Notes: generated by a model from the letters alone, not told the origin. A stretch of DNA of 64,000 nucleotides from a bacterium (GCA_003252295.1 QKEV01000008.1:21574-85573); one strand, 5' to 3'. Shown: positions 28,152 to 62,012, counted from the stretch's first letter. Translations and numbers: made by a program.

Positions 28152-29033
28152 ATGGAAAACAAAAAAGTAATACTTGTAACGGGTGGTGCAGGGTTTGTGG
28201 GAAGTCATCTCGTGGAGGCGCTCGTTAGTGATGAGAACAACCAGGTTATTTCACTCGACAACTATTTTACCGGTTCAAAGGAGAACCATGTAGAGGGTGC
28301 TGAGTACCGTGAAGGGCATACCAAGGATATTGCCATGTTGGTACCTGAGCAACCTGACATCGTGTACCATCTCGGTGAGTACTCACGCGTTCGGCAAAGC
28401 TTAGATGAGCCGGATGTGGTGTGGGACCTCAACATGGCTGGGACACTTGCGGTGCTTGAGTACTGGCGTGAGAAAAAGTGTAAGCTGGTGTACGCCGGTT
28501 CAAGTACGAAGTTTACCGATACACGAGAGGACGGTGTCGAGGGGAGAAACCTTGCACCGTACACATGGGCAAAAGCTGCGACCACAGACCTCGTGGTGAA
28601 CTACGCTCGATGGTACAATCTTTCTTTTGTGAACACGTACTTTTACAACGTGTATGGTCCGCGAGAACTTGGTGGCAAGCATGGTACGGTGATACCAATA
28701 CTTTTAGATAGGTACAGAAAGGGAGAACCGCTCACTATTGCGAGCCCTGGAACACAAGAGCGTTGCTTTACCCATGTACTCGACACGGTAGATGGCATAC
28801 TCCTTGCTGCCAAGAAGGGTGAGGGTGATGGGTACGGTATTGGAACAGATGAAGTACATTCACTCTTGGAACTTGCTGAGATGATAGGAGGAGAAATAGA
28901 AATGTTGCCACAGACGAAGAGTACCCGTTCCTCAGACATTGTTGATTCAGAAAAAGTAAAAGCTCTTGGCTGGAAACCACGGCACACCCTCAAAGACTAC
29001 ATAGATGAGGTGAAGGGAAATATTGACATGTAA
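28152..29033 (+). CDS. NAD-dependent sugar epimerase/dehydratase (extended SDR)
   Basis: VILVTGGAGFVGSHL Rossmann motif. The YxxxK region is conserved. It is shorter than GalE, resembling a UDP-sugar decarboxylase or epimerase. Confidence 0.8.
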   Translation: MENKKVILVTGGAGFVGSHLVEALVSDENNQVISLDNYFTGSKENHVEGAEYREGHTKDIAMLVPEQPDIVYHLGEYSRVRQSLDEPDVVWDLNMAGTLAVLEYWREKKCKLVYAGSSTKFTDTREDGVEGRNLAPYTWAKAATTDLVVNYARWYNLSFVNTYFYNVYGPRELGGKHGTVIPILLDRYRKGEPLTIASPGTQERCFTHVLDTVDGILLAAKKGEGDGYGIGTDEVHSLLELAEMIGGEIEMLPQTKSTRSSDIVDSEKVKALGWKPRHTLKDYIDEVKGNIDM

Positions 29034-29094
29034 ACTAATACATCGTACTCTCGTGGTAGGTTTTCAACATTAAAAACATACAAGGAGGTGTTCT

Positions 29095-29574
29095 GTGGAT
29101 CTGTTTTCAAGAAAGACTCAGGGTGGGACTATCTACATACCGCCACTATGTAAGGTGAAGGTTGTTGATGACAGTATGCAGTTTCGTTACAAGTTGCCAA
29201 CAGGTGGAAAATTAGCACTTTGTGTTGCACCGCAATATGGGAAGGCAGACAAAGAAGGTCATTTTCACAAAGGTTTGGTTGAAGTGTACACGGTTCATTT
29301 GGGCTGGCTCGAAATAATCTTTCAGGATGCTTCGGGTGGTGAAATAGAACATACGGTTGTTGAACCGTACGGCACCAGTTGTTCGTTCGTTGCGTCAACA
29401 GGTATGAGGCATGCGATCATACAGGGACCAGAAACAGTGTTTGTTGTACAAACCATCGCAAATCATAAGCCGGTACCTAATCCAGAGAAGAATGGGAATG
29501 ATTGGTATCCTGCCGAAGAAAAGTTTAATGAACTTGTTCGCGAACACTTTCGTGTCCGAGGGTACGATATGTAA
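29095..29574 (+). CDS. Cupin-fold protein, possibly sugar 3,4-ketoisomerase-like (FdtA/WxcM type), tentative
   Basis: 159 aa with an HFHKG...E...H pattern. Its position is between a sugar epimerase and glycosyltransferases. Confidence 0.35.
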   Translation: MDLFSRKTQGGTIYIPPLCKVKVVDDSMQFRYKLPTGGKLALCVAPQYGKADKEGHFHKGLVEVYTVHLGWLEIIFQDASGGEIEHTVVEPYGTSCSFVASTGMRHAIIQGPETVFVVQTIANHKPVPNPEKNGNDWYPAEEKFNELVREHFRVRGYDM

Positions 29575-29631
29575 TTTTATAACACCCCTACGTGTGCTAT
29601 GTGCACGTAGGGGTGCTTGTATCAATAAAAT

Positions 29632-30834
29632 ATGCGGAATGGTATACTACTCTTCATGAAAAAACGCATACTACTGTTTTCTCTCGCATACTACCCGAGT
29701 CATGTTTCTGGAGCTGAGGCTGCAGTACGAGAGATTACTGACAGAATAAAACCTGAAGAAATTGAATTTGAACTTATTACCCACTGGTTTGATAAGTCAC
29801 AACCGAGGGAGGAAAAAATAGGGAACGTACTCGTGCATCGAGTGGGGGTGAGTGCGAACTACCTTTCAAAGATACTTTTTGTATTTCTTGCTGTACGTAC
29901 AGCACAGAGACTGCACAAAGAGAAACCATTTACCGGCATGTGGGCACTCATGACGTACATGCTCTTCCCGCTTTCACTCGCGCGAATGTTTGGCATGAAG
30001 CTTCCGTACGTCATTACGCTACAGGATGGTGATGCGTATGAGAAAGTGTTTGAGCGGTGGTTCATTAAGCCGTTTGCATGGATACTCGACTATGGTTTTA
30101 GGCATGCGACGGTGGTACAAGCAATATCAAACTATCTTGCTGAGTGGCCAGCAAAACGTGGTAGTGATGTTCCTGTGGAGATGATACATAACGGTGGTAA
30201 CCCACGGGACTTCATACGTGACCTCTTTAGTAAGGAGGAGATAGAAGACGCACGAAAAGGGATAGGTGTACTGGAAGGTGAAATACTTATAGGTAACACT
30301 GCTCGCTTGGTGTACCAGAAAGGGTGGGAAGACACCATTACTGCACTCTCACAGCTTCCAGAAAAGTACAAAATGCTCATCGTTGGTGGCGGGGAAGATG
30401 AAAAGAAGTACAGGGAGTTGGTGAAGAAACTTTCACTCGAGAGCAGAGTAATTTTTATTGGACAGGTAGACAGGAGTGAAGTGACCAGGTACCGAAGAAT
30501 GCTTGATGTGTTCGTTATGCCGAGCAGGTCAGAAGGCTTGGGTAATGCGGGACTCTCAGCTATGGCGAGCAAGATCCCACTCATTGCAACGCAAGAGGGT
30601 GGACTCGCTGAGTACGTGTTTGATGAGAAGAGAAATCCTGGAGTTCCGGCAACAGCCTGGGCGGTAGATAGGGATAGCCCAGGACAGATAGCAGAGACCG
30701 TGCAGTACATCATTGATCATCCGGAGAAACGGCAAAAGGTGGTGACCACAGCGTACGACATGGTGTCACGAAAGTACCGTTGGGATTCCATTGCGAAAGA
30801 TATGCAGGAGAAGGTGTTTTCTAAAATTACGTAG
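29632..30834 (+). CDS. Glycosyltransferase family 4 (GT-B)
   Basis: The C-terminal GT4 region has EGLGNAGLSAMASKIPLIAT. An alternative start is at 29656 (MKKRILLFS). Confidence 0.8.
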   Translation: MRNGILLFMKKRILLFSLAYYPSHVSGAEAAVREITDRIKPEEIEFELITHWFDKSQPREEKIGNVLVHRVGVSANYLSKILFVFLAVRTAQRLHKEKPFTGMWALMTYMLFPLSLARMFGMKLPYVITLQDGDAYEKVFERWFIKPFAWILDYGFRHATVVQAISNYLAEWPAKRGSDVPVEMIHNGGNPRDFIRDLFSKEEIEDARKGIGVLEGEILIGNTARLVYQKGWEDTITALSQLPEKYKMLIVGGGEDEKKYRELVKKLSLESRVIFIGQVDRSEVTRYRRMLDVFVMPSRSEGLGNAGLSAMASKIPLIATQEGGLAEYVFDEKRNPGVPATAWAVDRDSPGQIAETVQYIIDHPEKRQKVVTTAYDMVSRKYRWDSIAKDMQEKVFSKIT

Positions 30835-30835
30835 T

Positions 30836-31387
30836 ATGTTCAACGCACCAACACTAGTAGAGAAGGCGGTACGAGTGGCGACAGTAGCCCATAGTGGTCA
30901 GGTGCGGAAAAGTGATGGGTCTCCCTACATAGTGCATCCATACATGTGTGCACTGAAGCTCATGCAGTACGATTGCTCTGAGGAGGTGGTAGCCGCTGCA
31001 CTCACCCATGATGTACTAGAGGATACTGCCATAACCGAAGATGAGCTTCGACTCATACTTGGTAACGCAGTGGTGGATATTGTCACACATGTTTCAGAGG
31101 ATAAGAGGAAGGAATGGGAGGCAAGGAAAGAAGACTATGTAGAGATGGTGCGCAATGCTCCTCTTGAGGTAAAGCTCGTGAGTATTGTCGACAAGATACA
31201 CAACATGGAGAGTGTCCTCTTTGCTCATGAAAAAGATGGTGAAAAGATATGGAGTGTGTTCAACAAGGGAAAGGAAAAGAAATTGTGGTTTGAGGAGTTG
31301 TGCTTGAACATGTTCAAAGAGACACTGGAGCATCCACTCGTAGCCGAGTATGAGAAGCTCGTCGAAAAGATGCGAACTCTGATGTAG
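30836..31387 (+). CDS. HD-domain protein resembling (p)ppGpp hydrolase / small alarmone hydrolase
   Basis: AHSGQVRKSDGSPYIVHPYMCA...AALTHDVLEDT is the RelA/SpoT-type HD motif. The start overlaps the upstream stop by 1 nt. Confidence 0.7.
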   Translation: MFNAPTLVEKAVRVATVAHSGQVRKSDGSPYIVHPYMCALKLMQYDCSEEVVAAALTHDVLEDTAITEDELRLILGNAVVDIVTHVSEDKRKEWEARKEDYVEMVRNAPLEVKLVSIVDKIHNMESVLFAHEKDGEKIWSVFNKGKEKKLWFEELCLNMFKETLEHPLVAEYEKLVEKMRTLM

Positions 31388-32476
31388 CTAGTGCAGGTTC
31401 TTCTGTCGTTCAACTTCTTCCGTATCACGCAATCTATCGCGTGTTTTTTTGTATCCTTCTACGATGTTTGAATCGACTGTGGTGTTGTTGAGTTGTGCTT
31501 CAAGTACCCGTGACCAAAACTGTACACGTTCCTGTGTGAGAGTGGTGAGGTTGCCTTCAGTTTTTTCAAGCTTACTTGCGTAAAACCAGATGAGTTCGAG
31601 GAGTCGGTATATACGCATGAGCCGAAGTGATTCTAGTTCCCCCTTACTTCTGTTGTTTGCTACGTACTCATGTAGGGCTCGTTCGAGAGATGGATTATGA
31701 AGCGTCATGAAGTTCATGAGCCGTGCCCAACCTTCGTACTTGTTACCAAAGCGGATAGCAGTATGGTCAAGCAGGTAGATATCTTGCTCATGTACACGGA
31801 TGTTGTGGGGAACAAAGTCCCAGTGTGTAAGAAAGTTTGAGTATAGGTCGAGTATCTCTGAACCACTCTCAAGAGCTTCTTGTGCACGACGGAGTAGTTC
31901 AGTAAGTTCTGTCTTTTCTTTGAGCAGGCCGGACGTTTCTTGTACGAATGACTTTGCGTTTTCTAGATAGCGATCACTAGTGTATAGCTCAAAAACTTTC
32001 CGTATATTTTTGATGTGCCCGTACGTTGTTGCATGCGAACCTTCCTGAGCTTCCAGTGCCTTGAGTGCAAGGAAGAACTGCTCCTCTAGACTTCGTTCGA
32101 GAAAAGTTTTTTCCTGAGGTATGAACTCAGTGATGTAAAAGGTGTAGACACCATGCTTACCAAAGAGTATCTCTTCTGGTGAGTAGAAGGTGTTGTATGC
32201 AAAACGAATTTTCCTGAGCATGTCATGTGCTGCTCGTTCTTTCTCAAGTTCCTGGGCTATGGTGCTGTTGCTTGTAATCTTTATGATTACTTGCTTACCA
32301 GTTGTCGTTTGTGCGCCATAGAGTACGAGTTTTTCTCCAGAAAGGATGTAGCGTTCACCTTGTATGTGTGGTTGCTCGCTCGCAAGCTCAAACCCTTCAT
32401 CCAAGAGGAGTGGAGTGACTTCTTGAAGGTGTTGCTGGCAGTATGCTTCCCATTTTTCTTTTTGACTATCACCCAT
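31388..32476 (-). CDS. Protein-kinase-like / aminoglycoside-phosphotransferase-fold kinase
   Basis: Catalytic-loop HWDFVPHNIRV (HxDxxxxN) and a DxG-type LLDHTAIRFG. The start was chosen at the Met 2 nt after the upstream GT stop. The longer ORF to 32587 overlaps that GT. Confidence 0.5.
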   Translation of the reverse strand: MGDSQKEKWEAYCQQHLQEVTPLLLDEGFELASEQPHIQGERYILSGEKLVLYGAQTTTGKQVIIKITSNSTIAQELEKERAAHDMLRKIRFAYNTFYSPEEILFGKHGVYTFYITEFIPQEKTFLERSLEEQFFLALKALEAQEGSHATTYGHIKNIRKVFELYTSDRYLENAKSFVQETSGLLKEKTELTELLRRAQEALESGSEILDLYSNFLTHWDFVPHNIRVHEQDIYLLDHTAIRFGNKYEGWARLMNFMTLHNPSLERALHEYVANNRSKGELESLRLMRIYRLLELIWFYASKLEKTEGNLTTLTQERVQFWSRVLEAQLNNTTVDSNIVEGYKKTRDRLRDTEEVERQKNLH

Positions 32477-33614
32477 GATGTATTTTATTAAACGTATCAT
32501 TGAGTATCTGAATATGTTTGTCCCATGAAAATGTTTTCTCGAATACTTTCTTTGCATTACCTGAAAGTTCTGCAGCAAATGATTCATCCTCTAGGATTTC
32601 CAAAAGCATTTCTGCAGTGATATTGGCATTTGCTGGTTGTGTGAGGAGTCCTGTTTTTTCATGCATTATTCCCTCACGTATTCCGGGGACATGAGGTACA
32701 ACGACAGGTACACCATTTTGAAATGCTTCGTAGAGAAGCTCTGGTGTTTCCGCGTACGCTGCAGTAGAGAGAAAAGCACTTGCTGTTTGTAAGTGGTAGA
32801 GCTTTTCTGCTCGCGACACCTCACCAAGTAGGAGAACATTCTTTTCAAGTGAGAGCTCACGTATACTGTCCTCAAGTGCAACACGTTCTTCTTTTCCTCC
32901 GCCTGCTATGACAAGTTGCGCGTCTTCATGTACTCCACACACTTTTTGCATTGCTCTTAATGCTGTTGGTATATCTTCCCATGGAAAGAGAGAAGCTTTC
33001 ATGAAAACCTTGTTGCGTTGCTTCTTTTCAGTGAAGGGGAGGGAGAGTGGTTTGCGTGGAGCAGGGTTGAGGACACTAACACGGGTGTTCTGAAGCCCAT
33101 GTGTTCGGGTGAGGTCATCACATATGAACTGTGATGGTGCGAGTACATGTCTAGCATGCCGAAGTACGTACTGTTGTGTATGCCAAACTCCCCAGACACC
33201 ACCAGGTATCTTTTGCAGTTTTCGAAATGCACCTTGATGAATAGGGGCGGTGTCGGTATGGAGAAATCGCTCCCATGCTTCGTCCTCTGTGTAGTGTACG
33301 ATAACAGGCGTTTTGGTAAAACGTCCTGCCAGTACCGCAGGTAGTCCTGCAGCAACAGCTCGTTCTGTATAGATAATGTCTGCGCTTCGCGCCAGTTGCG
33401 TGAGGGTACGTGTGTAGTGAAAGAGTCGTACAAAAAGAGGAGTGTTCTTCTTTACTGTTTTTATCTCTACTCCCGCAATGGTTTCTATATGGTTTGCGTA
33501 GGTAAGTATAGTTATCTCATGGCCTTCTTTGAGATGCAGAGCAAGTTCCTGTATATACTGAGCTGAGTCACCAGTTTCAGGTGGGAAGAGTGGTGTTGCG
33601 ATAAGTATTTTCAT
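32469..33614 (-). CDS. Glycosyltransferase family 4
   Basis: MKILIATPLFPPETGDSAQY N-terminus. GT4 C-terminal motif. Confidence 0.8.
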   Translation of the reverse strand: MKILIATPLFPPETGDSAQYIQELALHLKEGHEITILTYANHIETIAGVEIKTVKKNTPLFVRLFHYTRTLTQLARSADIIYTERAVAAGLPAVLAGRFTKTPVIVHYTEDEAWERFLHTDTAPIHQGAFRKLQKIPGGVWGVWHTQQYVLRHARHVLAPSQFICDDLTRTHGLQNTRVSVLNPAPRKPLSLPFTEKKQRNKVFMKASLFPWEDIPTALRAMQKVCGVHEDAQLVIAGGGKEERVALEDSIRELSLEKNVLLLGEVSRAEKLYHLQTASAFLSTAAYAETPELLYEAFQNGVPVVVPHVPGIREGIMHEKTGLLTQPANANITAEMLLEILEDESFAAELSGNAKKVFEKTFSWDKHIQILNDTFNKIHHG

Positions 33615-33986: not shown

Positions 33987-34991
33987 ATGAAAGTACTTAT
34001 TGCAACACCTTTATCACCTCCTGACCCAGGAGGACCATCTTACTATTCAGCAAGCTTGTACGATGCTTTTCAGGCAATGGGGGAAGAGGTTGAAATGATC
34101 TCATTCCGCGATGTACGTGGACTTCCTCCAGGTATTCGACATTTCGTATTCTTTTTGATGGTGTTCTTTAAGTTACGCAAGATGGATGCACTCATTATGC
34201 TCGACACAGTGAGTGTCGCTATACCGGCGGCTATCGCAGGAAGAATATTGCGCAAGAAAATGGTAGTACGTGTAGGTGGTGATTTCCTGTGGGAGCGATA
34301 CGTAGAACGTACTGGGGAGAAGATACTACTTTCTGACTTTTACTTACAGGAGAGACCTTTTACAAAGAAAGAACGTTTTATTATGTGGTTGCAGAAGAGG
34401 TATGTATTTCGTGACGATGTACAGCTTGCTTTTAATACTGCATGGCAGTATGGGCTCTGGGCAGAGCCGTACGGTCTCAAGGATGAAAACGCGCAGGTTA
34501 TCGGTAATGCGTTTGACATAAACATGCAGAAGCAAGCTGCACCAGGTGAAGTATTTCTTGCAGCGTGGCGACCTACAGCATTTAAAAATATTGATACACT
34601 TGAGAAAGCGTATGAGCTAGCGAAGGCAGAAGACAGTACGATACAGCTTGAGATATACAAGAACATACCTCGTGAGTCGCTCCATGAGTATATGATGAGT
34701 GCTCGAGCACTCATCATTCCATCACTTTCAGAACTTGCACCAAACATGGCATACGAAGCACTTGCTATGGGGATACCTGTTATCCTTACGCAAGATTGCG
34801 GTTTGTATGACGAACTCAAGGACGTGGCACTATGGGTAGACCCACTCAGTCCGGAAGATATTGCCAGTAAGATGCTCTATCTCCAAGATGAGGAGAACTA
34901 TTTTGAGATGAAAGAGCGGGTGAAGTACTTTACTCGTGACCACTCATACATGAACATAGCTAACGAGTTTCTCTTTGTATTAAAAAAGTAG
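33987..34991 (+). CDS. Glycosyltransferase (GT4-like), divergent paralog of 32469..33614
   Basis: MKVLIATPLSPPDPGGPSYY parallels the N-terminus of the neighbouring GT. Confidence 0.7.
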   Translation: MKVLIATPLSPPDPGGPSYYSASLYDAFQAMGEEVEMISFRDVRGLPPGIRHFVFFLMVFFKLRKMDALIMLDTVSVAIPAAIAGRILRKKMVVRVGGDFLWERYVERTGEKILLSDFYLQERPFTKKERFIMWLQKRYVFRDDVQLAFNTAWQYGLWAEPYGLKDENAQVIGNAFDINMQKQAAPGEVFLAAWRPTAFKNIDTLEKAYELAKAEDSTIQLEIYKNIPRESLHEYMMSARALIIPSLSELAPNMAYEALAMGIPVILTQDCGLYDELKDVALWVDPLSPEDIASKMLYLQDEENYFEMKERVKYFTRDHSYMNIANEFLFVLKK

Positions 34992-35472: not shown

Positions 35473-36612
35473 ATGATGAAGTTACTACTTATTGGAACTG
35501 ATCGACACATCTTCGTGGAGGGAACAGAGGCGAGAAGTCGTATGGTGGGCTATGCGAGTGTTGCTGATGAGATACATGTTATCGTTTTTGCAAAGAGGGG
35601 ACTTGGTTTTACGCAAACACAGATAGCTCCAAATATTACCGTGTACCCAACCAACTCACGTACGAAGCTTCACTATATATTCGATGCTGTGCATTTGGGA
35701 AAGGGTGTGAAAGGAATCACGCACGTGAGTGCACAAGATCCCTTCGAGTGTGGTCTTGCCTCACTGTTTGTTGCGCGTTTTCACAAAGCGGCATTTCAGG
35801 TACAGATGCATATAGATGCATTTGGAAAATACTTCAAAGCTGAGTCTCTTCTCAACCCGTTACGCTCACTCATCGCACGCTATGTTTTGCCAAGAGCAGA
35901 TGGTATACGTGCTGTTTCTGAACGTATAAAGAAGTCTGTACTTAATCAGAGGATGAGGTTGCACTGTGAGCCAAAAGTTCTGCCAGTGTACGTGGATGTA
36001 TCTCGTTTTGAAACAGAAGAAGCAACAGTATCACTGCATGAGAAGTATCCACACTTTGACCCACTCATACTCACTGCAGGACGTTTGGTGCCACAGAAAG
36101 ATATGCCGACAGCGTTCAAGGCATTTGCTCAGTTTGTAGAAAAAGAAGAGAAATCAGGACTCGTTGTGGTGGGGGAGGGTCCTGATGAGGATGAGTTGAA
36201 AGAGCTTGTAGCTACACTTGGGCTTGATGGAAGAGTAGTGTTTGAACCGTGGCAAAAGGACGCATCCGCATACCTGTCATACCTAAAGACAGCGGACATA
36301 TTTCTCATGACATCAACACATGAAGGGTATCAACGCGCACTGGGTGAAGCTGCTGCCTCTGGTATTCCTGTTGTAACGACAGACACGGGACCGGTGGGTT
36401 CTGTGTACAAGGATGGTGACTCGGTACTCGTTTGTCCTGTGGGGGATGTCGCTTGTATTACTGAGAAGTTGCACATGCTAGCGAGTGACCCTGTGCTTCG
36501 GGAAAAGCTCAGTACTCGTGCTCGAAGAGTAGCGCATGACGCTATAGCTCCTGACTACGAAACATACATACAGCATTTTCGTGACCTCATTTTAGCGTGT
36601 GGTGGTAAGTAA
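35473..36612 (+). CDS. Glycosyltransferase family 4
   Basis: GT4 C-terminal region TSTHEGYQRALGEAAASGIPVVTTDTG. Confidence 0.75.
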   Translation: MMKLLLIGTDRHIFVEGTEARSRMVGYASVADEIHVIVFAKRGLGFTQTQIAPNITVYPTNSRTKLHYIFDAVHLGKGVKGITHVSAQDPFECGLASLFVARFHKAAFQVQMHIDAFGKYFKAESLLNPLRSLIARYVLPRADGIRAVSERIKKSVLNQRMRLHCEPKVLPVYVDVSRFETEEATVSLHEKYPHFDPLILTAGRLVPQKDMPTAFKAFAQFVEKEEKSGLVVVGEGPDEDELKELVATLGLDGRVVFEPWQKDASAYLSYLKTADIFLMTSTHEGYQRALGEAAASGIPVVTTDTGPVGSVYKDGDSVLVCPVGDVACITEKLHMLASDPVLREKLSTRARRVAHDAIAPDYETYIQHFRDLILACGGK

Positions 36613-41490: not shown

Positions 41491-41491
41491 T

Positions 41492-47054: not shown

Positions 47055-47492
47055 TTATATTCGGTTATCTGAAAATGCAAAGAACTTTATTGCAAAAAAA
47101 TTAACAAAAAAACCAACCACCAGCGCAATACCTTTTGCCGGCATAACTTCGCAGGACGCGCCCTCAACTAATGCTATCACAACCAATAAATTAACGAGTA
47201 GACCAAAACCACTTGAAGCATAGTGTTTAATACATGTTCGAGTCCATGATGAGGAACGAGCAAAGACAAACTTATTTGAAAAGAGAAAGTTGGTCATTGT
47301 TCCTGACATAAAACCTGCGAAAACTGCAACAGTGTAGTGTACAAAAGGAACTTTTAGTACGAGATACACTGACAAAAGGTCTACGCATGCTGAAACAATA
47401 CTTACAAACAAGTAACGAAATAGTTGCCAAGTAAGGAATTTTGGAAATGGTACTGTAAGCAGTTTTTCTTGTAGATGGGTGTAAATGTTCAC
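47055..47492 (-). CDS. GtrA-family polysaccharide-synthesis membrane protein
   Basis: 145 aa with 4 TM helices. GtrA-like motifs (RYLFVSIVSACVDLL...FLFSNKFVF). Confidence 0.75.
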   Translation of the reverse strand: MNIYTHLQEKLLTVPFPKFLTWQLFRYLFVSIVSACVDLLSVYLVLKVPFVHYTVAVFAGFMSGTMTNFLFSNKFVFARSSSWTRTCIKHYASSGFGLLVNLLVVIALVEGASCEVMPAKGIALVVGFFVNFFAIKFFAFSDNRI

Positions 47493-54548: not shown

Positions 54549-55334
54549 ATGTCTGTTGAGGAGTATGCAGAAATGGTCAAAGATGTTAGCTCACTTTCTC
54601 TTGAGTATTACAAGAGGAGTGTTGAAGTTACCTACAAAGAAGATGACTCGCCACTCACTGAAGCGGACAGAGTGGTGCATAGGCATCTGGTTTCCGAACT
54701 ATCAAAGACAAACATACCAGTGCTTTCTGAGGAGGGGAATCAGGAGGTGAGTTCTACTGATGGGGAACTATGGGTGATTGATCCAATAGATGGTACAAAG
54801 GATTTTATACAAGGAACTGATCAATTCTCAACGATGGTTGCTCTAGTGCAGGACGGTGTGCCGATTATGGGTATAGTATACGCACCAGCACTAGATGAGC
54901 TTTACTTTGCTGAGAAAGGAAAAGGTGCCTACTTACAAGTGGGTGACAAGGTGGAACGTTTGACTGTTTCTGATAGAGGAGACCTTGCTGACGCGACACT
55001 TGTAGTGAGTCGTAACCACGGAAGTCCCGAGTATGAGGAAAAGCTTGAGGAGATTGGTGTTAAAAAGAGGGAGAAAGGGTCTATAGGAATAAAACTTGGT
55101 GAGATAGCAAAAGGTGATGCCGAAGTATACGTAAATCACTACCGTAAGCTTGGTTGGTGGGATGTGCTTGCGCCACAGATCATACTTGAGGAGGCGGGAG
55201 GTAAGGTGACTGGTTTGAGTGGAGAGGTGTTGCGGTATGATGAGCCGCCGTATCAGGTAGTGGAGGGTGTGCTTGCATCAAACGAGTTACTGCATGATTC
55301 TGTACTTGTAAGTTTTAACGAGATAGAAAGATAA
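54549..55334 (+). CDS. Inositol-monophosphatase-fold phosphatase, CysQ-like 3'(2'),5'-bisphosphate nucleotidase
   Basis: WVIDPIDGTKDF metal-binding motif and EEG...D pattern. The length is ~260 aa. Confidence 0.7.
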   Translation: MSVEEYAEMVKDVSSLSLEYYKRSVEVTYKEDDSPLTEADRVVHRHLVSELSKTNIPVLSEEGNQEVSSTDGELWVIDPIDGTKDFIQGTDQFSTMVALVQDGVPIMGIVYAPALDELYFAEKGKGAYLQVGDKVERLTVSDRGDLADATLVVSRNHGSPEYEEKLEEIGVKKREKGSIGIKLGEIAKGDAEVYVNHYRKLGWWDVLAPQIILEEAGGKVTGLSGEVLRYDEPPYQVVEGVLASNELLHDSVLVSFNEIER

Positions 55335-55353: not shown

Positions 55354-55800
55354 GTGTTAGTCTTACAGCAAGTAACAATGGTTTTGTGCACTGGCTTTAT
55401 GGGCTTTTTGGTACCTGGTAAAACCACTGTTGCCGATAGAGTCTATAAAGAGGTACATGGGAAAGGTTTACCTATTGTGCGACTTGATGGTGACGTCGTA
55501 AGAGAAAATCTAACCGAAGACTTAGGTTTTAGTTGAGAAGATAGAAATGAAAATACACGCCGTGTTGGTTTTGTTGCTGACCTTTTGAGTAAGAATGGTG
55601 TAGTTGTGTTATCGTCGTTTATTACAGCTTATGAAGAGTGGAGAAAATGGCTCAGAGAGAGGGGATGCTTTCGTTTATAGGAATTTCGGACGTGTTTGAA
55701 ACTCCAGAAAAAACAGATGTTTGTTTGCAGTGGAGTGAAAAGTCAGCAGAAGAGAGTAAAACCCATTATTGATTATTTGAAAGAGGGTAGGATGATTTGA
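55354..55800 (+). pseudogene. cysC: Adenylyl-sulfate (APS) kinase gene disrupted by an in-frame TGA, a frameshift and an internal deletion
   Basis: The first frame has GFLVPGKTT (P-loop) and VRLDGDVVRENLTEDLGFS, followed by a stop. Downstream reads EDRNENTRRVGFVADLL...VVLSSFI, then in shifted frames DVFETPEKTDVCLQ and KPIIDYLKEGRMI. These match APS-kinase blocks LDGDNVRxxLxxDLGFS, DRxENIRR, FISP, EVFVDTPLEVCEQ and ILDYLKERG. Confidence 0.65.
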
Positions 55801-55826: not shown

Positions 55827-56882
55827 TTAAGAATTATGGATTTTTTTTAAAAATTTCGATAATTCTCTTGCATAAATTTCAGCATCTGCATTTTTGACAA
55901 CAAAATCTCGAGCATTCTTTCCTAAAAATTTTCTTTTGTTTTCATTATTGTATAAATCTCGAATTGCTTTTTGCATTGCCTTCACATCGTGTTTGGGCAC
56001 AAAGACACCATTCTTTCCATCTTGTATATAGGAAGATAGGGCTTTTGTTTTTGTAGCTATTATAGCCTTTCCGCTTGCCATGGCTTCAATAACTACATAT
56101 GTTCCCATTGAATCATTGTTGTCTTCTTTCATGTTTAGTCCGACAATGTTGATCCTTGCTCTATTGTAAAGTTTTTTCATTTCTTCATGAGTATAAAATC
56201 TTGCAGTTACATTTTTTGGTAAGGGTTCATACTGTGCCACTCGCTCTGGTTTGGTTGCGATGTGTAACTGAATTTCTGGTAATCCTTTCATTGCTTCGAT
56301 AAGTGTTCCAAAGTCGCGACTTGGATCAAGTCCAACAGAAATAATGTAGTCTCCTTCTTCCGTATCTGATGGTGTAAAATATTTTGTATCAACACCTTCA
56401 AATAAAAATTTTGCGCGTTCTCCCATATAAGGGAACATTTTTCGTAAAGAATCTTCTTCTGCTTGTGAAAGTGCCACAATACCATCAGCTTTTGAAACAG
56501 CATATTTAAAAAGTTTTGTCCTAAGTGTTTTTTCTTTTTCTATGGTACCAGTAATATTTGCATCATAAATAACCCACTTCGGTCTAGGTAAATGAAAAAT
56601 TGCTTTAAAGAGCAGGGATGCATAAGCTCCTCCTGTGAAAACGATATCATACTTAAAAAAGTATGGGAAAAAAGGTAAATGCATCCAAAAAATATTTAAA
56701 ATCCTTCTCCATACTTTTGCTACGGGATTGGGAAGTATGTGTTCAGGGTCAAAAAAATTTGTTTCAATACCATATTTTCTTATGCGGTACATACCAATAA
56801 AATGGTTGTCATGACCTTTGCCAGATTCAAAATTTTTTGCTTGTTCAATACGAGGACGACTGAACAAAAATAACACCTTCAT
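55827..56882 (-). CDS. Glycosyltransferase family 4
   Basis: GT4 C-terminal region (VIEAMASGKAIIATK). Confidence 0.75.
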   Translation of the reverse strand: MKVLFLFSRPRIEQAKNFESGKGHDNHFIGMYRIRKYGIETNFFDPEHILPNPVAKVWRRILNIFWMHLPFFPYFFKYDIVFTGGAYASLLFKAIFHLPRPKWVIYDANITGTIEKEKTLRTKLFKYAVSKADGIVALSQAEEDSLRKMFPYMGERAKFLFEGVDTKYFTPSDTEEGDYIISVGLDPSRDFGTLIEAMKGLPEIQLHIATKPERVAQYEPLPKNVTARFYTHEEMKKLYNRARINIVGLNMKEDNNDSMGTYVVIEAMASGKAIIATKTKALSSYIQDGKNGVFVPKHDVKAMQKAIRDLYNNENKRKFLGKNARDFVVKNADAEIYARELSKFLKKIHNS

Positions 56883-56946: not shown

Positions 56947-59628
56947 ATGTGGATAGTAGACAGAGTTTTAAAAAATAATGTTATTTTAATAATATTAATA
57001 GTTCTTTATTTTTTTAACATGTTTTTTAGAAGAGTTTTAATAAAAAATATCATACAACTGTTTGTGTTGTCTGTTGTTGCCGCTGCTCCAAGTGATTTTT
57101 TATTTGCAGAAGAAATACAGACCATTAAAAGTGATGTATCATTATCGGATGGTTTAGTATCGTATTGGTCAATGGATGAGGAAATTGGTATCAGAAAAGA
57201 CATTGTAGGAGGAAATGATTTAATACCAGAAGGAAACGTGATAGGAATTTCAGCGGTACAAGGATATGGTGCTGATTTTGTAAAGAATAATATTGAATCA
57301 CTGTATGTAGAACATGTTCCTGAATTAGAACCAGGTAGTGATTACAGTATTTCTCTTTGGTACAGACATGATAGTTCTGAATATAATGTTCAAAGTGTAA
57401 TTTCAAAGGATGGTGTGAATCCATTAAAAGGATACACTTTATTTACAGATGATGGTTCTATTTTGTATATGACACATCAGAATATAACCACGTTGCATGG
57501 TCCAACCCTTGAAGTTGGTAAGTGGTATCACATTGTCGCAACACATGATGCTACAAATAATTTAAATTTTCTATACGTAAATAATTCTGCACCTTATACA
57601 GTACCTGGTGGGTATTTGGATTCCGAAGGAGCGACTTTAAGAGTAGGTGGATATAACTATAATACAAATTATTATTCTGACGGTGCAGTTGATGAGTTAG
57701 GTTACTGGAATCGGGTACTTACTCAGGAGGAGGTAGGTCGTTTGTATAACGAAGGTGAAGGTGTGCCATATGATGTTAGTAATGAAGATGTTGACGATGG
57801 GGTGTCGTCTGTAGCTTTTATTCCAGGTATTACAGGTAGTAGGTTATACGTAAATAGTTTATTTGGTGAAGATAAGTTGTGGGAGTCAATACGTTTAGGT
57901 GATTTGAGTGATATTGGTTTTACTAAAGATGGTGTGAGTGAGCGAAATGATGTATATACGAGAGATGTTGTGGAAACACTTCGCCCAGTAGTTGAGTGGT
58001 GGGATTACGCAGAGGGGTATAGTGATTTTATGGAATATCTCAATATCCTTACTCAAGAAGGTTTAATAAATGAATGGGAGGCACTTCCATATGATTGGCG
58101 TATGGCAACCGATAAACTTTTTCACTATGGTGAAAATTTGGGTAATGGAAATATTTCATATCTGACAGGTGAGCAAGATGAACCATACATTATTACTCGA
58201 CTAGAAGAACTTGCAGAAAACTCTCAAACAGGAAAGGTGACTATTGTTGCGCACAGTAATGGTGGTTTAGTAGCGAGAAATCTTTTGAAGTATTTACAAG
58301 ATACAAATCATCCTTTGTTTGAAAAAATTGATAAAGTGATACTTGTTAGTTCACCACTTCTTGGCACCCCTAAAACTATTGGAGAATTATTGCATGGTAC
58401 GACTAATATCGTAGAAGGTGCCACACGGGACGCAATGGAAAATATGCCAGGGGTGTATGGGTTGTTGCCATCGCAAATACTTATGAGTAATTTAAATGAC
58501 CCGGTAGTTGAAGTAGATTATCTTGCTCAAATTGAAAATCCATTTAAGAATTTTTACGATACAAAAATAACAACATATGATGATCTTGTGGCGTTCTTGC
58601 TTGGCGAATTGGCGCCTAGAAATGAACCAGATAGTACTGAGACATGGATGCCAAATATACTTAACAAAACTATTCTAGAGGATGTACGGAGTATGCATAG
58701 TGGTGTCGACAGTCAAGATTTTCCTGAAAATATTGAGGTGGTGTCGATCATAGGAACTGATCTTCCAACCGCTCGTGCTGTTCGATATACAAATTGTCTT
58801 GAGTATCATGTTGCATGTGTGGGAAAGGAGAGCGAGACATTACATGAATGGCTTTTTACTACAAGAGGTGACGGAACAGTTGTTACAACCTCGGCAAAGG
58901 GTGGTGTTGGGGTAGATAAAACAGTGTTTGTTTCACTTACAAAAATTGGTAAGGATGAAGGTGAAAATTATAGACATGCCACCATATTGTCTTCTTTATA
59001 TGTGCAAAATGTGATTAAGAGTGTGCTTTTGGGAATGAGTGATGAAATTGAAGGTGGAACTGAAGGTGTGAATACTGTAAAACGAATAGAACTCAAAGTG
59101 TATTCGCCTGTTGATGTGCATTTCTATAAAGATGATAACCATACCGGTGTGGTTAAAAATGGTGAAGAAAATGATTTTGGTAGGGAGTATGAACAAGAAG
59201 TACCAACATCATACTATCGTGAATGGGGTGAGGTTACTTACTTAGGAACCGAGTTGTATGATGATAATCTGGACATAACTTTTAAAGGGAAAGAAGTGGG
59301 TATGTTCACTTTAACGTTTGATGTGTATTTAGGGGAAGAATTACTTGATTCATATATATTTAAAGATATTCCTGTGAATTCAAAGACGGAAGGTTGGATT
59401 GAATTGACTGAAGGTGGGGAACCAATTTTGCACTATGATGGTGATGGAGATGGGGAAATCGATTTTACATTGAAACCGGATGATAGTATTCCTGATTCAC
59501 TTAGGAAATGGGTAAGAAACAAATTTCGTGTGATAGCAGAACTTATGCAACAAAAAGGAAAAGGTGTTGCAATAGCAATTGAAAGTCAGTTTAGTGAGAT
59601 ATCTCATAAGTTACAAAAAACATATTAA
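56947..59628 (+). CDS. Secreted/membrane-anchored protein: LamG-like (concanavalin-A-like lectin) domain + alpha/beta-hydrolase (lipase/PGAP1-like) domain
   Basis: N-terminal TM/signal. LamG_3-like block (SISLWYRHDSS...GKWYHIVATHDATNNLNFLYVNN). GxSxG nucleophile context IVAHSNGGLVARNLL. Confidence 0.5.
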   Translation: MWIVDRVLKNNVILIILIVLYFFNMFFRRVLIKNIIQLFVLSVVAAAPSDFLFAEEIQTIKSDVSLSDGLVSYWSMDEEIGIRKDIVGGNDLIPEGNVIGISAVQGYGADFVKNNIESLYVEHVPELEPGSDYSISLWYRHDSSEYNVQSVISKDGVNPLKGYTLFTDDGSILYMTHQNITTLHGPTLEVGKWYHIVATHDATNNLNFLYVNNSAPYTVPGGYLDSEGATLRVGGYNYNTNYYSDGAVDELGYWNRVLTQEEVGRLYNEGEGVPYDVSNEDVDDGVSSVAFIPGITGSRLYVNSLFGEDKLWESIRLGDLSDIGFTKDGVSERNDVYTRDVVETLRPVVEWWDYAEGYSDFMEYLNILTQEGLINEWEALPYDWRMATDKLFHYGENLGNGNISYLTGEQDEPYIITRLEELAENSQTGKVTIVAHSNGGLVARNLLKYLQDTNHPLFEKIDKVILVSSPLLGTPKTIGELLHGTTNIVEGATRDAMENMPGVYGLLPSQILMSNLNDPVVEVDYLAQIENPFKNFYDTKITTYDDLVAFLLGELAPRNEPDSTETWMPNILNKTILEDVRSMHSGVDSQDFPENIEVVSIIGTDLPTARAVRYTNCLEYHVACVGKESETLHEWLFTTRGDGTVVTTSAKGGVGVDKTVFVSLTKIGKDEGENYRHATILSSLYVQNVIKSVLLGMSDEIEGGTEGVNTVKRIELKVYSPVDVHFYKDDNHTGVVKNGEENDFGREYEQEVPTSYYREWGEVTYLGTELYDDNLDITFKGKEVGMFTLTFDVYLGEELLDSYIFKDIPVNSKTEGWIELTEGGEPILHYDGDGDGEIDFTLKPDDSIPDSLRKWVRNKFRVIAELMQQKGKGVAIAIESQFSEISHKLQKTY

Positions 59629-59687
59629 AGTATTTGTAAAATTTCTTTATTGAAATAGTTTCTTCATCACGACGATGTTTTTCCAGA

Positions 59688-62012
59688 GTGACAAGTATGT
59701 TACGACGACGGTGTCGTGGTATAGTAGTGACCATGTTAAAAAGCACACTTCGATGGGTAGCTATAGCAGGTATTTTTGCGATACCGGTTATTCTGCCATT
59801 CATCGTTTCTTCGTCAATGTTCTTTCCATTCATTACGGGAAAGAATTTCACTTTTAGAATACTAGTAGAAATAGTTTTAGGAGCGTGGGCGGTACTTGCC
59901 TTCATGGACGCACGATATCGACCCAAGTTCTCTTGGGTACTGGCAACAGTAACCCTGTTTGTTCTCATTATTGGACTTGCTGACTTTACCGGCAGTAATG
60001 TCTTCAAAAGTTTTTGGAGTAACTTTGAACGTATGGAGGGATACATTGCAGTATTGCACCTCTTTGCTTACTTCATAGTGGCTGGAACAGTACTCAGTAC
60101 AGAGAAACTTTGGAAGGTATTCTGGTACGCATCTCTCGGAGCAAGTGTGCTTGTAGCTATCGTTGGTCTTGGTCCTATTTTTGACGACCCAACACACTTT
60201 TACCAAGTGCGAATAGAAGCTCGTTTTGGAAACCCTATCTACCTTGCAGTGTACTCACTCTTCCATGCCTTCATCGCACTCATTCTAGCAGAAAAGTGGC
60301 GCGGGATAGTGTGGCACCGAGTGTTGCTGATAGCGGTTGCAGTACTGCATATGGTCATTGTGGTTCTTACCCAGACTCGTGGTACGACTTTTGGTTTACT
60401 CGGCGGTCTCATGGTTGCTACATTACTCATCGCAATCTTTGAACGGGAACGAAAGGCACTCAGGGTAGGAGCAATTGCCGTACTCTTAGCTGTAGCAACA
60501 CTCGTTGGAACAGGATATGCAATAAAGGATACTAACTACGCAAAGACAACGCCGATTCTTGGCAGGTTCACACAGATAGAGCTCACAACAGGTACGGTAC
60601 ACGCTCGTTTTATGAACTGGGGTATGGCATGGCAGGGAGCAAAGGAACGACCGATACTAGGATGGGGACAGGGTAACTACGAGTATGTGTTCTCAAAATA
60701 CTTTGACCCAGGTATGTATGGTGAAGAGCCATGGTTTGACCGTACACACAACATTTTCTTTGACTGGCTCGTTGCAGCAGGTTTTCTTGGTCTCCTCTCT
60801 TACCTACTCATGCCCGCATCGCTCTTGGTGAGCTTGTGGACAGTAGATAGAGAGAATCTAGAAGGTCGTAAGTGGTCACTGAAAAAGTTACTAAGTTTTG
60901 AAACCATAAAGAACATCTTTGTGAAGCGTGATCATGCGTTTACTCCTACAGAGCGTGCGCTCTGGACAGGGCTTGTGGCTGCATACATGTTCCATAACCT
61001 CTTTGTATTTGATAATATCATCAGCTACATCCTTTTCTTCTCAGTACTTGCATACATTCACTTTAGGGTGACGGAGGATGATAAGTCACTATGGAACGAT
61101 GTAACCATCTCTGAGGAAACAATCACTACAGCGGTAATGCCGGTAACACTCGTCGTCGTTGGACTCTTGATATGGTATATAAATGTTCCAGGTATCAAGA
61201 CATCGCAAGCACTCATTGATGCTCTACAACCTCAAAAGACCCTTCCGACGGGGCAGGTGGTACAGCAGACACCTGAGGATGTGTTAGCTCACTACAAGCG
61301 TGCACTTGACTATGACCAGCTCGGTCGTCAGGAAGTGCGAGAACAAGCTGCACAAATGGCTGCAAACTTCCAACGAAACGAGAATGTGTCACAGGACACT
61401 AAGGTCGCTTTCAAGAATCTTGCGATGGCGGAAATGCAAAAGGAAGTAGACCGTAACCCAAACTCAGCACGTCTTGAACTCTTCATGGCAGCACTCTATG
61501 GCGGTTATGGACAGCTCGATAAGGCAGAGGAAACATTTAAGAGAGTTCTGGAACTTGCGCCAAGAAAACAGATTGTCATGTTCCAGTTAGGTGAGGTGCT
61601 TACTCTTGAAGGTAAAAATGATGAAGCGGTAGAGGTTCTCAAGGAGGCGTATGAAGCTGAGACGGAGTTCAGTGAAGCTGCTTCACGGTATGCTGCTGCT
61701 CTCATACGTGCTGGACGAGACAAGGAAGCTGTCGACTTTATAACAGAACGTTTTGGTGATGTAACATACGACGACGGACGGGTCTTTGGTGCGTGGATGC
61801 AGGCAAAACGTTACGACATTATTGCAGCCATTCTTGAGAACAGGATAGCTGCAAACCCTGATGACCTGCAGCAGTACGTTTCTCTTGCTGTTGCTTACAA
61901 TGAATTGGGAGAGTCAGAAAAGGCTATCGCTATACTTGAAGGTGTAAAGGATGACCACCCAGAGTATACCGATCAGATGGATACATTTATAAAAGAAATT
62001 CGCGGCTGGTAG
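59688..62012 (+). CDS. O-antigen-ligase-like (Wzy_C) polytopic membrane protein with C-terminal TPR repeats
   Basis: About 12 TM helices in the N-terminal 450 aa. The C-terminal ~250 aa are helical repeats (TPR-like). An alternative start is at 59733. Confidence 0.6.
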   Translation: MTSMLRRRCRGIVVTMLKSTLRWVAIAGIFAIPVILPFIVSSSMFFPFITGKNFTFRILVEIVLGAWAVLAFMDARYRPKFSWVLATVTLFVLIIGLADFTGSNVFKSFWSNFERMEGYIAVLHLFAYFIVAGTVLSTEKLWKVFWYASLGASVLVAIVGLGPIFDDPTHFYQVRIEARFGNPIYLAVYSLFHAFIALILAEKWRGIVWHRVLLIAVAVLHMVIVVLTQTRGTTFGLLGGLMVATLLIAIFERERKALRVGAIAVLLAVATLVGTGYAIKDTNYAKTTPILGRFTQIELTTGTVHARFMNWGMAWQGAKERPILGWGQGNYEYVFSKYFDPGMYGEEPWFDRTHNIFFDWLVAAGFLGLLSYLLMPASLLVSLWTVDRENLEGRKWSLKKLLSFETIKNIFVKRDHAFTPTERALWTGLVAAYMFHNLFVFDNIISYILFFSVLAYIHFRVTEDDKSLWNDVTISEETITTAVMPVTLVVVGLLIWYINVPGIKTSQALIDALQPQKTLPTGQVVQQTPEDVLAHYKRALDYDQLGRQEVREQAAQMAANFQRNENVSQDTKVAFKNLAMAEMQKEVDRNPNSARLELFMAALYGGYGQLDKAEETFKRVLELAPRKQIVMFQLGEVLTLEGKNDEAVEVLKEAYEAETEFSEAASRYAAALIRAGRDKEAVDFITERFGDVTYDDGRVFGAWMQAKRYDIIAAILENRIAANPDDLQQYVSLAVAYNELGESEKAIAILEGVKDDHPEYTDQMDTFIKEIRGW

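Follow-up and report, generated by a model that had tools for sequence, protein, structure and literature searches.

The locus considered here raises a simple question: do 34 kb of glycan genes specify one surface polymer, or have they been put together from separate parts? The locus occupies positions 28152–62012 of a 64,000-nucleotide stretch of bacterial DNA (GCA_003252295.1, QKEV01000008.1:21574–85573), which in its full length is termed the window. The window is part of a 103.8-kb (103,848-bp) contig of a metagenome-assembled genome (MAG) on record at NCBI and JGI, and Logan has assembled it independently from run SRR7216773; the negative results given below for the window cover these 64 kb. 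The answer proposed is a mosaic cell-envelope glycan locus of a familiar kind, with a conserved core and exchangeable cassettes. It probably combines an assembly pathway of GT4 glycosyltransferases, a Wzx flippase and a Wzy_C protein with two cassettes of the GtrA type and a sulfation branch that is decaying.

Pfam and NCBIfam scans of the window's open reading frames (ORFs) put the glycan genes where a preliminary description of this DNA had placed them, and the family assignments bear out its call of a glycan-biosynthesis locus. The ORFs named there (SDRs, GT4s, GT2, methyltransferases, Wzx, YvcK, and Wzy_C with TPR repeats) fall in glycan families, with model scores above the cut-offs in all cases but one, a cupin. 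The locus contains eight GT4s, one GT2, two GT-C-like membrane proteins, one Wzy_C-TPR protein, two SDRs, the cupin, three methyltransferases, a Wzx flippase, YvcK and a sulfotransferase. The count of at least 10 glycosyltransferases given earlier holds only when membrane enzymes are included (nine Leloir glycosyltransferases, two GT-C-like proteins and one Wzy_C protein). The statement that almost every gene is glycan-related is true for about three-quarters of the DNA: glycan-pathway families cover 25,522 of 33,861 bases (75%), and an HD_4 protein (30836), a kinase-like ORF (31388), a GIY-YIG remnant, a CysQ-like protein (54549) and a LamG-LCAT protein (56947) are not glycan enzymes.

The genes do not form one operon. 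Coding changes strand at least eight times within the locus, the GC content is 0.445 in 28152–40536 and 0.363 in 40537–59628 (0.429 upstream), with a drop at 40.5 kb, and comparison with a related metagenome contig, L002, shows the gain or replacement of cassettes. Promoter and terminator scans performed no better than scans of shuffled sequence.

Synteny was examined in the only lineage of close relatives found, represented by the JGI contig L002 and a fragment, L003. Twelve genes keep order and orientation in L002, with protein identities of 32–71%: GT4c, GT4d, YvcK, GT4e, GT4f, the GT2, a GtrA-flavoenzyme fusion, a protein with about 11 transmembrane (TM) segments, a second flavoenzyme, a PMT_2-like protein, GT4g and MT11b (names as in Table 1). 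GT4c aligns with the start of L002 (51% identity over 147 amino acids), and YvcK (69%) and the 11-TM protein (60%) are found at the same positions. The counterpart of the PMT_2-like protein at 49191 (48%) itself carries a PMT_2 match, and MT11b is 71% identical to its counterpart. The preliminary description named dispersal of the genes in relatives as a result that would speak against a functional unit; with these 12 genes kept together, the locus passes this check in part. No match to MT11a, the sulfotransferase or SDR2 was found by tblastn in L002, which has no gene at the MT11a position, and other cassettes are swapped. FkbM and Wzx genes are present in L002 but are too diverged for tblastn. 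The GtrA gene of L002 follows the second flavoenzyme gene on the plus strand, whereas that of the window precedes it on the minus strand, and L002 has in addition a methyltransferase, a GT47-like gene and a 23S_rRNA_IVP insertion. These differences, together with the GC drop at 40.5 kb, give the core-plus-cassettes picture that is usual for glycan loci.

The clearest sign of exchange concerns the second flavoenzyme (47648). Its identity is 60–67% with proteins of Firmicutes, Bacteroidetes, Gammaproteobacteria, Desulfonema, Melainabacteria and others, yet only 32% with its positional counterpart in L002 (10659–12149), which suggests xenologous replacement by horizontal transfer. Perhaps, then, the 34 kb are simply a recombination hot spot where independent envelope pathways have piled up, i.e. 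GT4s for a glycolipid or wall polymer, two decoration cassettes and the remnant of a sulfation pathway. This is a real possibility, short of being probable. It agrees with the strand switches, the GC difference between the two halves, the genes that are missing from L002 or diverged beyond detection there, and the foreign affinities of 47648, as well as with the presence inside the locus of a frameshifted GIY-YIG gene and a cysC pseudogene, and of 23S_rRNA_IVP insertions in L002 and in another metagenome contig, L169. However, the 12 genes have kept their order and orientation despite their sequence divergence, and many genes overlap or are less than 65 bp apart, which suggests operon-like blocks. 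A mosaic locus with a conserved core remains our preferred reading. It should be pointed out that the small 23S_rRNA_IVP (four-helix-bundle) genes are found inside glycan loci of two unrelated contigs (L002 3177–3533 and L169 6060–6425), beside YvcK or GT2 genes.

Two GtrA-type cassettes, absent from the preliminary description, lie between 40.5 and 50.7 kb. The first consists of the GT2 (40537), the GtrA-flavoenzyme fusion (41465) and the 11-TM protein (43227). The GT2 has PgfS (278.6 bits) and ArnC (182.3 bits) as top NCBIfam models, both under the equivalog cut-offs, a DGD motif at residue 96, and C-terminal TM segments at residues 235–288. The fusion protein belongs to the PRK07233 family (NF005560, 404.7 bits with a cut-off of 252). 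Its N-terminal domain matches the TM domain of Pyrococcus DPMS (5mlz); the Pfam family concerned is titled GtrA/DPMS, transmembrane domain. The 11-TM protein shows sub-threshold similarities to DUF6056 (E=1.6e-4, 21 bits compared with a cut-off of 27) and to the LA_3751/LA_3752 putative glycosyltransferase family (E=3.6e-8, 32.7 bits compared with 200), and no match among PDB sequences.

The cassette recurs widely. A scan of GTDB species representatives with the PRK07233 profile, of which the best 80 loci were kept (the window's own genome is not among them), gives loci from candidate phyla radiation (CPR) bacteria, Verrucomicrobiota (including a MAG labelled Akkermansia muciniphila), Actinomycetota (Demequina, Marisediminicola), Pseudomonadota and others. 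The fusion looked rare from the first matches, but this idea was dropped, as the match begins at the GtrA N-terminus in about 49 of the 80 loci. A GT2 homologous to that of the window is directly upstream of the flavoenzyme in 39 loci and within 3 kb in 48, and in examples from Saccharibacteria and Uhrbacteria the two genes adjoin a GtrA gene and large proteins with no Pfam match. Metagenome scans yielded only relatives of 49% identity or less for the GT2 and no match to the 11-TM protein. On a Burkholderia stagnalis plasmid, a PRK07233-type flavoenzyme is found with GtrA and an SDR, directly downstream of genes for a UbiA prenyltransferase and for DprE1-like and DprE2-like proteins. The lipopolysaccharide (LPS) locus of Xanthomonas likewise has flavoenzyme, GtrA and SDR genes together with UbiA and DprE1-/DprE2-like genes (Patil et al., 2007; PMC2238763).

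The element common to these contexts is a polyprenyl-phosphate monosaccharide together with GtrA. From this, and from the DPMS-like N-terminal domain, we infer that the PRK07233 enzyme acts on a lipid-linked intermediate. The GT2 would make a polyprenyl-phosphate sugar, the GtrA-fused flavoenzyme would act on it, and the 11-TM GT-C-like protein would transfer the sugar outside the membrane. The reaction could be the oxidation of a sugar hydroxyl together with an SDR partner, an isomerisation of the ring, or a change in the lipid.

In the last case the flavoenzyme would saturate or desaturate an isoprene unit of the polyprenyl chain and so produce a dedicated carrier, the sugar itself being left unmodified. 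The AlphaFold2 (AF2) model of the fusion protein (pLDDT 88.8) has phytoene desaturase (5mog) and protoporphyrinogen oxidase (PPOX) as its best folds, with a TM-score of 0.78; the closest characterised NCBIfam relative of the flavoenzyme is the hydroxysqualene dehydroxylase HpnE (E=1.3e-16), and the enzyme is fused to a membrane domain, all of which would suit such a role. Nevertheless LkcE and UDP-galactopyranose mutase (UGM) follow closely in the fold ranking, and the tight pairing with sugar genes (GT2 or UbiA/DprE-like, often with an SDR) fits sugar chemistry better. Lipid modification thus seems unlikely to us, and action on the sugar of the lipid-linked intermediate is preferred. Profile comparison shows PRK07233 to be homologous (probability 96.7%) to PRK07208, the family of the flavoenzyme in the second cassette.

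This second cassette has a stand-alone GtrA protein (47055; about four TM segments in a crude hydropathy scan), the flavoenzyme at 47648 and the PMT_2-like protein at 49191, which has no match among PDB sequences. In a phmmer search the flavoenzyme aligns with the UGM of Trypanosoma cruzi (4dsg; E=6.8e-11, residues 161–509) and also with that of Aspergillus fumigatus (3ukh). The FAD-binding GxGxxG motif and GGH loop, present as GGGPAG at residue 9 and GGH at residues 55–57, are invariant in 21 homologues. Also invariant are R378, Y449, R478, Y484 and the NQDHS segment (N485/N486-D488-H489-S490), all of which align to motifs of 4dsg. Residues R378, Y449, R478, Y484 and N presumably correspond to R327, Y419, R447, Y453 and N457 of fungal UGM, which bind the diphosphate and the sugar. 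Relative to the eukaryote-type enzymes (4dsg, 3ukh), the protein retains GGH, the Arg of ‘GRLQxFNNWSPY’, KxYP, GRNG, Y484 and NQDHS, but the overall similarity is very low and the Arg of the FMRPYNFKVW segment is exchanged for Lys. In addition, in the loci compared, enzymes of the 47648 type are always accompanied by GtrA and a GT-C-like gene, and not by galactofuranose transferases.

The second cassette also recurs. GtrA, PRK07208 and either a PMT_2-type protein or a large membrane protein with no family match are found together in two metagenome contigs (L168 and L169) and in Desulfonema ishimotonii (L170), where the cassette sits in a Wzm/Wzt-type cluster. The simplest reading of the PRK07208 cassette is a pyranose-furanose mutase that feeds a GtrA/GT-C pathway. 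The UGM-like flavoenzyme would supply a furanose, or an otherwise ring-isomerised sugar, and GtrA and the PMT_2-type GT-C protein would place it on a polymer or on a protein. In both cassettes, single flavoenzyme-modified sugars would be added outside the membrane.

The remaining glycan genes appear to constitute a cytoplasmic assembly block with export. The eight GT4 proteins score 47.9–116.2 bits with Glycos_transf_1 (PF00534; cut-off 26.4 bits). Recent tandem duplication of these genes was ruled out, as their pairwise identity is 32% or less and no repeated DNA was found in the locus. The top NCBIfam model for SDR1 is dTDP-glucose 4,6-dehydratase (101.7 bits), with a score far under the cut-off. 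The small protein at 29095, termed a cupin in the preliminary description, has no direct match in Pfam, NCBIfam or PDB sequence searches, but the assignment has indirect support. The protein carries the motifs GKADKEGHFHKGLVEVYTVHLG and STGMRHAIIQ, 10 of 41 homologues match Cupin_2, and a profile of the family retrieves only cupins from the PDB (best E-value 7e-5). Conservation extends to the positions of the His/Glu metal ligands, with no variation among family members at H56 and H106 and almost none at H58 and E63; there are only 64 homologues among 1.84 billion representatives. The cupin is possibly a partner of SDR1. The pair (28152–29574) resembles a split Cap5F, the capsule sugar-synthesis protein with an N-terminal SDR and a C-terminal cupin; the match of the family profile to the Cap5F cupin domain is weak (E=0.007).

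With these parts, the eight GT4s, two SDRs, the cupin and three S-adenosylmethionine (SAM) methyltransferases would build an O-methylated oligosaccharide on a polyprenyl carrier, Wzx would flip it across the membrane, and the Wzy_C-TPR protein would polymerise the oligosaccharide or join it to an acceptor. The two GtrA/GT-C cassettes would act after this step. The methylated polymer foreseen in the preliminary description is plausible, with three intact methyltransferases in the locus. The Wzy_C protein (59688) has about 13 TM segments and matches several TPR families. The Wzy_C domain is common to WaaL ligases, PglL/PilO oligosaccharyltransferases and some polymerases, and therefore the Pfam match cannot separate these three.

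The same match leaves room for a protein O-glycosylation system. In it, the Wzy_C-TPR protein would act as an O-oligosaccharyltransferase of the PglL/PilO type with the TPR array binding its protein substrates, the PMT_2-like protein would O-glycosylate proteins, as happens in Actinobacteria, and pili or neighbouring surface proteins would be the targets. TPR arrays usually bind proteins, and PMT_2 is the family of protein mannosyltransferases. PMT_2 also includes ArnT-like enzymes that modify lipids or glycans. Candidate surface proteins are near or in the locus (the LTD/PKD protein at 26688, LamG-LCAT at 56947 and a subtilase-T4SS_pilin protein at 8210), and Patescibacteria are monoderm-like and without LPS (PMC5220378). 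On the other hand, an acceptor protein or sequon was not identified, and eight GT4s and Wzx suit a repeat-unit polymer equally well. We regard protein O-glycosylation as improbable, and keep to the assembly of an envelope glycan.

The sulfation branch shows the most evident decay. The sulfotransferase ORF (44925) is intact, although its GC content of 0.29 (GC3 0.21) is the lowest in the locus. It has KAASTW (residue 19) and RNPINKISS (residue 102), two motifs that we take to be the 5′-phosphosulfate-binding (5′-PSB) and 3′-phosphate-binding (3′-PB) loops for 3′-phosphoadenosine 5′-phosphosulfate (PAPS). The gene at 54549 is also intact; CysQ (TIGR01331) is its best model, with 190.7 bits and a cut-off of 228.8. 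Adjoining it is an apparent gap of 492 bp (55335–55826), passed over in the preliminary description, which holds a degraded cysC, the gene for adenylyl-sulfate (APS) kinase. The remnant reads MVLCTGFMGFLVPGKTT...LDGDVVRENLTEDLGFS from an ATG at 55378 until an in-frame TGA at 55534–55536, where the Synechocystis APS kinase (5cb6) has Lys, and past the TGA it continues in the same frame with EDRNENTRRVGFVADLL...WLRERG. About 34 residues (reference positions 117–150) are lost, and the frame changes twice, at about 55660 and 55760: FIGISDVFETPEKTDV is read in another frame from 55674, and the first frame is found again at 55765. The joined fragments match 5cb6 with E=1.3e-20. An assembly artefact is unlikely, since the separate assembly by Logan (SRR7216773) gives the same 492 bp without a difference. 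Recoding of TGA was rejected, because four ordinary genes of the window end in TGA, the other ORFs are intact under translation table 11, and the two frame changes and the deletion would stay.

The sulfated polymer of the preliminary description is accordingly doubtful, as the only PAPS-supply gene of the locus is a pseudogene, no ATP sulfurylase is present among the scanned ORFs of the window, and the sulfotransferase, itself intact, has no homologue detectable by tblastn in L002. The capacity for sulfation looks as if it was acquired and then partly lost. Sulfation has probably disappeared, unless genes in another part of the genome provide the PAPS. Among bacteria other than cyanobacteria, sulfated polysaccharides are uncommon (PMC13390465).

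Sulfation could also still be active, with PAPS coming from an intact cysC and a sulfurylase elsewhere in the genome, or from a host. Both presumed PAPS-binding loops and the CysQ-like gene are retained, and the evidence covers 64 kb of the 103.8-kb contig, so that a second cysC might lie elsewhere; this last point also tells against the decay proposed here. Yet the only PAPS-pathway gene in the locus has been degraded by three kinds of lesion, and no sulfotransferase homologue is detectable in L002. As for a host source, we know of no precedent for the uptake of PAPS. Active sulfation is somewhat doubtful for these reasons, and a branch in decay, with the sulfotransferase and a CysQ-like phosphatase intact and cysC dead, seems the better description.

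The family assignments, the synteny with one relative, the recurrence of both cassettes, the conserved UGM residues and the lesions of cysC are direct results; the substrates, the acceptor, the sequence of steps and the flavoenzyme chemistry belong to the model. Several other observations weigh against the combined pathway. The many strand switches and the GC shift speak against one co-regulated unit, and the synteny rests on the one lineage of L002 and L003. Both GT-C assignments (43227 and 49191) are sub-threshold and lack a PDB sequence match, and a single GT2 is available for two GtrA cassettes. The fold of the PRK07233 enzyme fits phytoene desaturase/PPOX as well as or better than UGM, and the enzyme lacks the equivalent of UGM Arg327 and the GRxG..NQDHS motifs. 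The PRK07208 enzyme (47648) has Lys183 at the position of the flap Arg, presumably Arg182 of fungal UGM, scores 34.8 bits with TIGR00031 (cut-off 303.75), and has no match to Pfam GLF. For these three reasons it is not filed as a UGM, and at best it would work like one. Among the scanned ORFs of the window there is no priming phosphoglycosyltransferase (WbaP/WecA type; Bac_transf, Glycos_transf_4), no chain-length regulator (Wzz/PCP) and no LCP ligase. The priming transferase may be encoded elsewhere in the genome.

How does the locus compare with known systems? A three-component framework in which auxiliary epimerases diversify a lipid-linked donor has already been published (PMC11127046; PMC11194591), and the locus would work in a similar way. 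GtrABC-type systems (gtrABC of Shigella and Salmonella, CsbB/GtcA/YfhO, and Pgf of Streptococcus mutans) have, as does the locus, a GT2 with C-terminal TM helices, small GtrA proteins and adjacent multi-TM GT-C-like genes. Of the components of such a system, a membrane-anchored GT2 (with predicted activity) and GtrA-family proteins (41465 and 47055) are present in the locus. The differences are that each cassette adds a flavoenzyme of the amine-oxidase fold, in one case fused to GtrA, that one GT2 apparently serves two GtrA/GT-C sets, and that the GT-C partners score under their family cut-offs. FAD-dependent oxidoreductases have been remarked on in Bacillus three-component systems (PMC11194591), but no functional study of flavoenzyme-coupled GtrA cassettes was found in the literature searched.

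A second resemblance is to systems that use polyprenyl-phospho-pentofuranose, namely the mycobacterial decaprenyl-phospho-arabinofuranose (DPA) pathway with DprE1/DprE2 and the Citrobacter youngae O1/O2 pathway (Kelly et al., 2024; PMC11127046). In these, as is proposed for the locus, a lipid-linked monosaccharide is modified by auxiliary redox enzymes before GT-C transfer outside, and a furanose donor is plausible in the locus through the UGM-like enzyme. In contrast, the donor synthase of the locus is a Leloir-type GT2 and not a phosphoribosyl pyrophosphate (PRPP)-dependent UbiA-family enzyme, and the flippase is GtrA and not of the MATE type. Both flavoenzymes of the locus have the amine-oxidase/NAD_binding_8 fold and differ in this from DprE1, so that the analogy is functional only. 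The fold of DprE1 is that of vanillyl-alcohol oxidase (FAD_binding_4).

Wzx/Wzy clusters for O-antigen or capsule share with the locus the many glycosyltransferases, the sugar-modifying enzymes, Wzx, a Wzy_C protein, low GC and a content that varies between relatives. They differ from it in that the window has no initiating transferase, Wzz or export/attachment gene, that the host is monoderm-like and without LPS, and that a TPR array is attached to Wzy_C. In ORF8–ORF12 of the Xanthomonas LPS locus, a GtrA-like gene, genes for two large membrane proteins and for a 430-aa ‘phytoene desaturase/protoporphyrinogen oxidase’, and an NAD-dependent epimerase gene are adjacent (Patil et al., 2007; PMC2238763), but there the context is Gram-negative LPS, with UbiA and DprE-like genes and no GT2 directly upstream.

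Table 1. Features of the locus (28152–62012) and of its surroundings, in window coordinates; the match column gives family scores or other grounds for the assignment.
Feature	Coordinates	Strand	Match
Subtilase fused to T4SS_pilin domain, upstream of locus	8210-10645	+	
VirD4/TraG-like coupling protein, upstream of locus	24746-26695	+	
SDR1, NAD-dependent sugar epimerase/dehydratase	28152..29033	+	PF01370 148.8 bits
Small cupin-family protein	29095..29574	+	cupin motifs, family profile
GT4a	29632..30834	+	PF00534 110.8 bits
HD_4 SpoT-like hydrolase-domain protein, 183 aa, not a glycan enzyme	30836..31387	+	PF13328 59.6 bits
362-aa protein with kinase-like HxDxxxxN...D motif	31388..32476	-	HWDFVPHNIRVHEQDIYLLD at residue 218
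GT4b	32469..33614	-	PF00534 92.3 bits
GIY-YIG nuclease-domain gene, frameshift-split into 51-aa and 38-aa ORFs	33611-33872	-	joined PF01541 58.5 bits
GT4c	33987..34991	+	PF00534 47.9 bits; only C-terminal domain recognised
GT4d	35473..36612	+	PF00534 97.6 bits
YvcK/CofD-related UDP-GlcNAc-binding protein	36652..37650	+	TIGR01826 306.3 bits (cut-off 196)
GT4e	37715..38755	+	PF00534 48.6 bits
GT4f	38745..39926	+	PF00534 116.2 bits
SAM methyltransferase MT11a (Methyltransf_11)	39892..40536	+	PF08241 63.3 bits
GT2 polyprenyl-phosphate glycosyltransferase, GtrB/PgfS/ArnC-like	40537..41490	+	PF00535 116.8 bits
GtrA/DPMS-type TM domain and amine-oxidase-fold flavoenzyme, fusion	41465..43222	+	PF04138 74.2 bits; PF01593 77.7 bits
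11-TM membrane protein, putative GT-C-like transferase	43227..44888	+	~11 TM segments; sub-threshold matches
PAPS-type sulfotransferase, intact ORF	44925..45848	+	PF00685 53.7 bits
SDR2, NAD-dependent epimerase/reductase	45987..47027	-	PF01370 132.7 bits
Stand-alone GtrA-family flippase-like protein	47055..47492	-	PF04138 57.9 bits
UGM-like flavoenzyme, PRK07208 family	47648..49228	+	NF005546 832.7 bits (cut-off 418)
PMT_2-like GT-C membrane glycosyltransferase	49191..50678	+	PF13231 25.5 bits (cut-off 26.1); ~10 TM segments
GT4g	50724..51785	+	PF00534 67.8 bits
SAM methyltransferase MT11b (Methyltransf_11)	51796..52446	+	PF08241 42.9 bits
FkbM-family methyltransferase	52454..53164	-	PF05050 73.1 bits; TIGR01444 101.6 bits
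Wzx-type (MOP) flippase (Polysacc_synt)	53174..54430	-	PF01943 64.2 bits; PF13440 47.9 bits
Inositol-monophosphatase-family protein, closest to CysQ (3′-phosphoadenosine 5′-phosphate phosphatase)	54549..55334	+	PF00459 166.9 bits
APS kinase (adenylyl-sulfate kinase, cysC) pseudogene	55378..55800	+	PF01583 97.4 bits, joined fragments
GT4h	55827..56882	-	PF00534 66.7 bits
LamG lectin and LCAT/PGAP1-like lipase protein, 893 aa, secreted or membrane-anchored	56947..59628	+	PF13385 61.6 bits; PF02450 57.5 bits
Wzy_C membrane protein (polymerase, ligase or O-oligosaccharyltransferase type) with C-terminal TPR array	59688..62012	+	PF04932 68.7 bits
88-aa protein, lysine-rich N-terminus, AbrB/MazE-like domain	62047-62313	+	PF04014 24.4 bits (cut-off 24.7)

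Several genes inside or beside the locus belong to other families (Table 1). The HD_4 protein is a stand-alone form that matches only the hydrolase part of RelA/SpoT (TIGR00691, N-terminal part), and a gap of 1 bp separates its gene from GT4a. The protein at 31388 has no family match in Pfam or NCBIfam and no PDB sequence match, and its single-sequence AF2 model is unusable (pLDDT 37). A similarity to WelO5 (E=0.002, 18 bits with a cut-off of 27) was dismissed as spurious. The kinase-like motif, which reads HWDFVPHN...LLD, is a better though unproven lead, and the protein could be a sugar or glycan kinase. The GIY-YIG remnant is located between the divergently oriented genes GT4b and GT4c.

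The LamG-LCAT protein has an N-terminal hydrophobic segment, and the GC content of its gene is 0.36. A role in glycan synthesis is improbable; the protein could instead act at the surface as a lipase or acyltransferase and take lipids from a host. The AbrB/MazE-like gene sits between the Wzy_C-TPR gene and murB. A 103-aa ORF on the strand opposite to it (62022–62333) is of low complexity and probably spurious.

The locus is flanked by the LTD/PKD surface protein gene (26688) on one side and by murB (62585) on the other, and murD and murC are at 17–20 kb of the window. An Rfam scan gives two tRNAs only. Among 41 genes of the window, 21 end in TAA, 16 in TAG and only four in TGA. The preliminary description took the host to be a member of the Patescibacteria, and this is supported by the best matches of the valyl-tRNA synthetase (ValRS) and by the T4SS_pilin domain and VirD4-like gene upstream of the locus. 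The ValRS is 68–72% identical to its named matches, which are from the Patescibacteria group, Kaiserbacteria, Pacebacteria and Minisyncoccia. The T4SS_pilin fusion and the VirD4/TraG-like gene fit the type IV secretion system reported for Patescibacteria. Parcubacteria genomes are rich in glycosyltransferases; one has 20, from which its authors infer polysaccharides, glycoproteins or a glycosylated S-layer (PMC5220378).

The locus thus combines known kinds, a Wzx/Wzy-type cluster and three-component systems of the GtrABC type. It can further be suggested, tentatively and with some doubt, that PRK07233 (often fused to GtrA) and PRK07208 are a regular fourth component of GtrA/GT-C systems in many phyla, and that they convert a nucleotide-linked or polyprenyl-phosphate-linked sugar to a furanose or otherwise altered donor before flipping. 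Flavoenzyme-GtrA cassettes recur in CPR bacteria, Verrucomicrobiota, Actinomycetota, Desulfonema, Burkholderia and Xanthomonas, and annotation has already picked them up. Should their products be lipid-linked furanose or epimerised donors, the cassettes would represent a new branch of the three-component glycosylation pathways. This branch would parallel the mycobacterial decaprenyl-phospho-arabinofuranose route, but be hexose-based and Leloir-fed, and it would be a widespread way to put unusual sugars on bacterial surfaces, Patescibacteria included.

To our knowledge, the envelope chemistry of the Patescibacteria has not been worked out by anyone, and the surface is the presumed meeting point of these cells with their hosts. 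The locus offers a parts list for that surface: GT4 assembly with Wzx and Wzy_C-TPR, two GtrA/GT-C decoration cassettes, methylation and a dying sulfation branch. The comparison with L002 shows which of these parts are kept and which are swapped.

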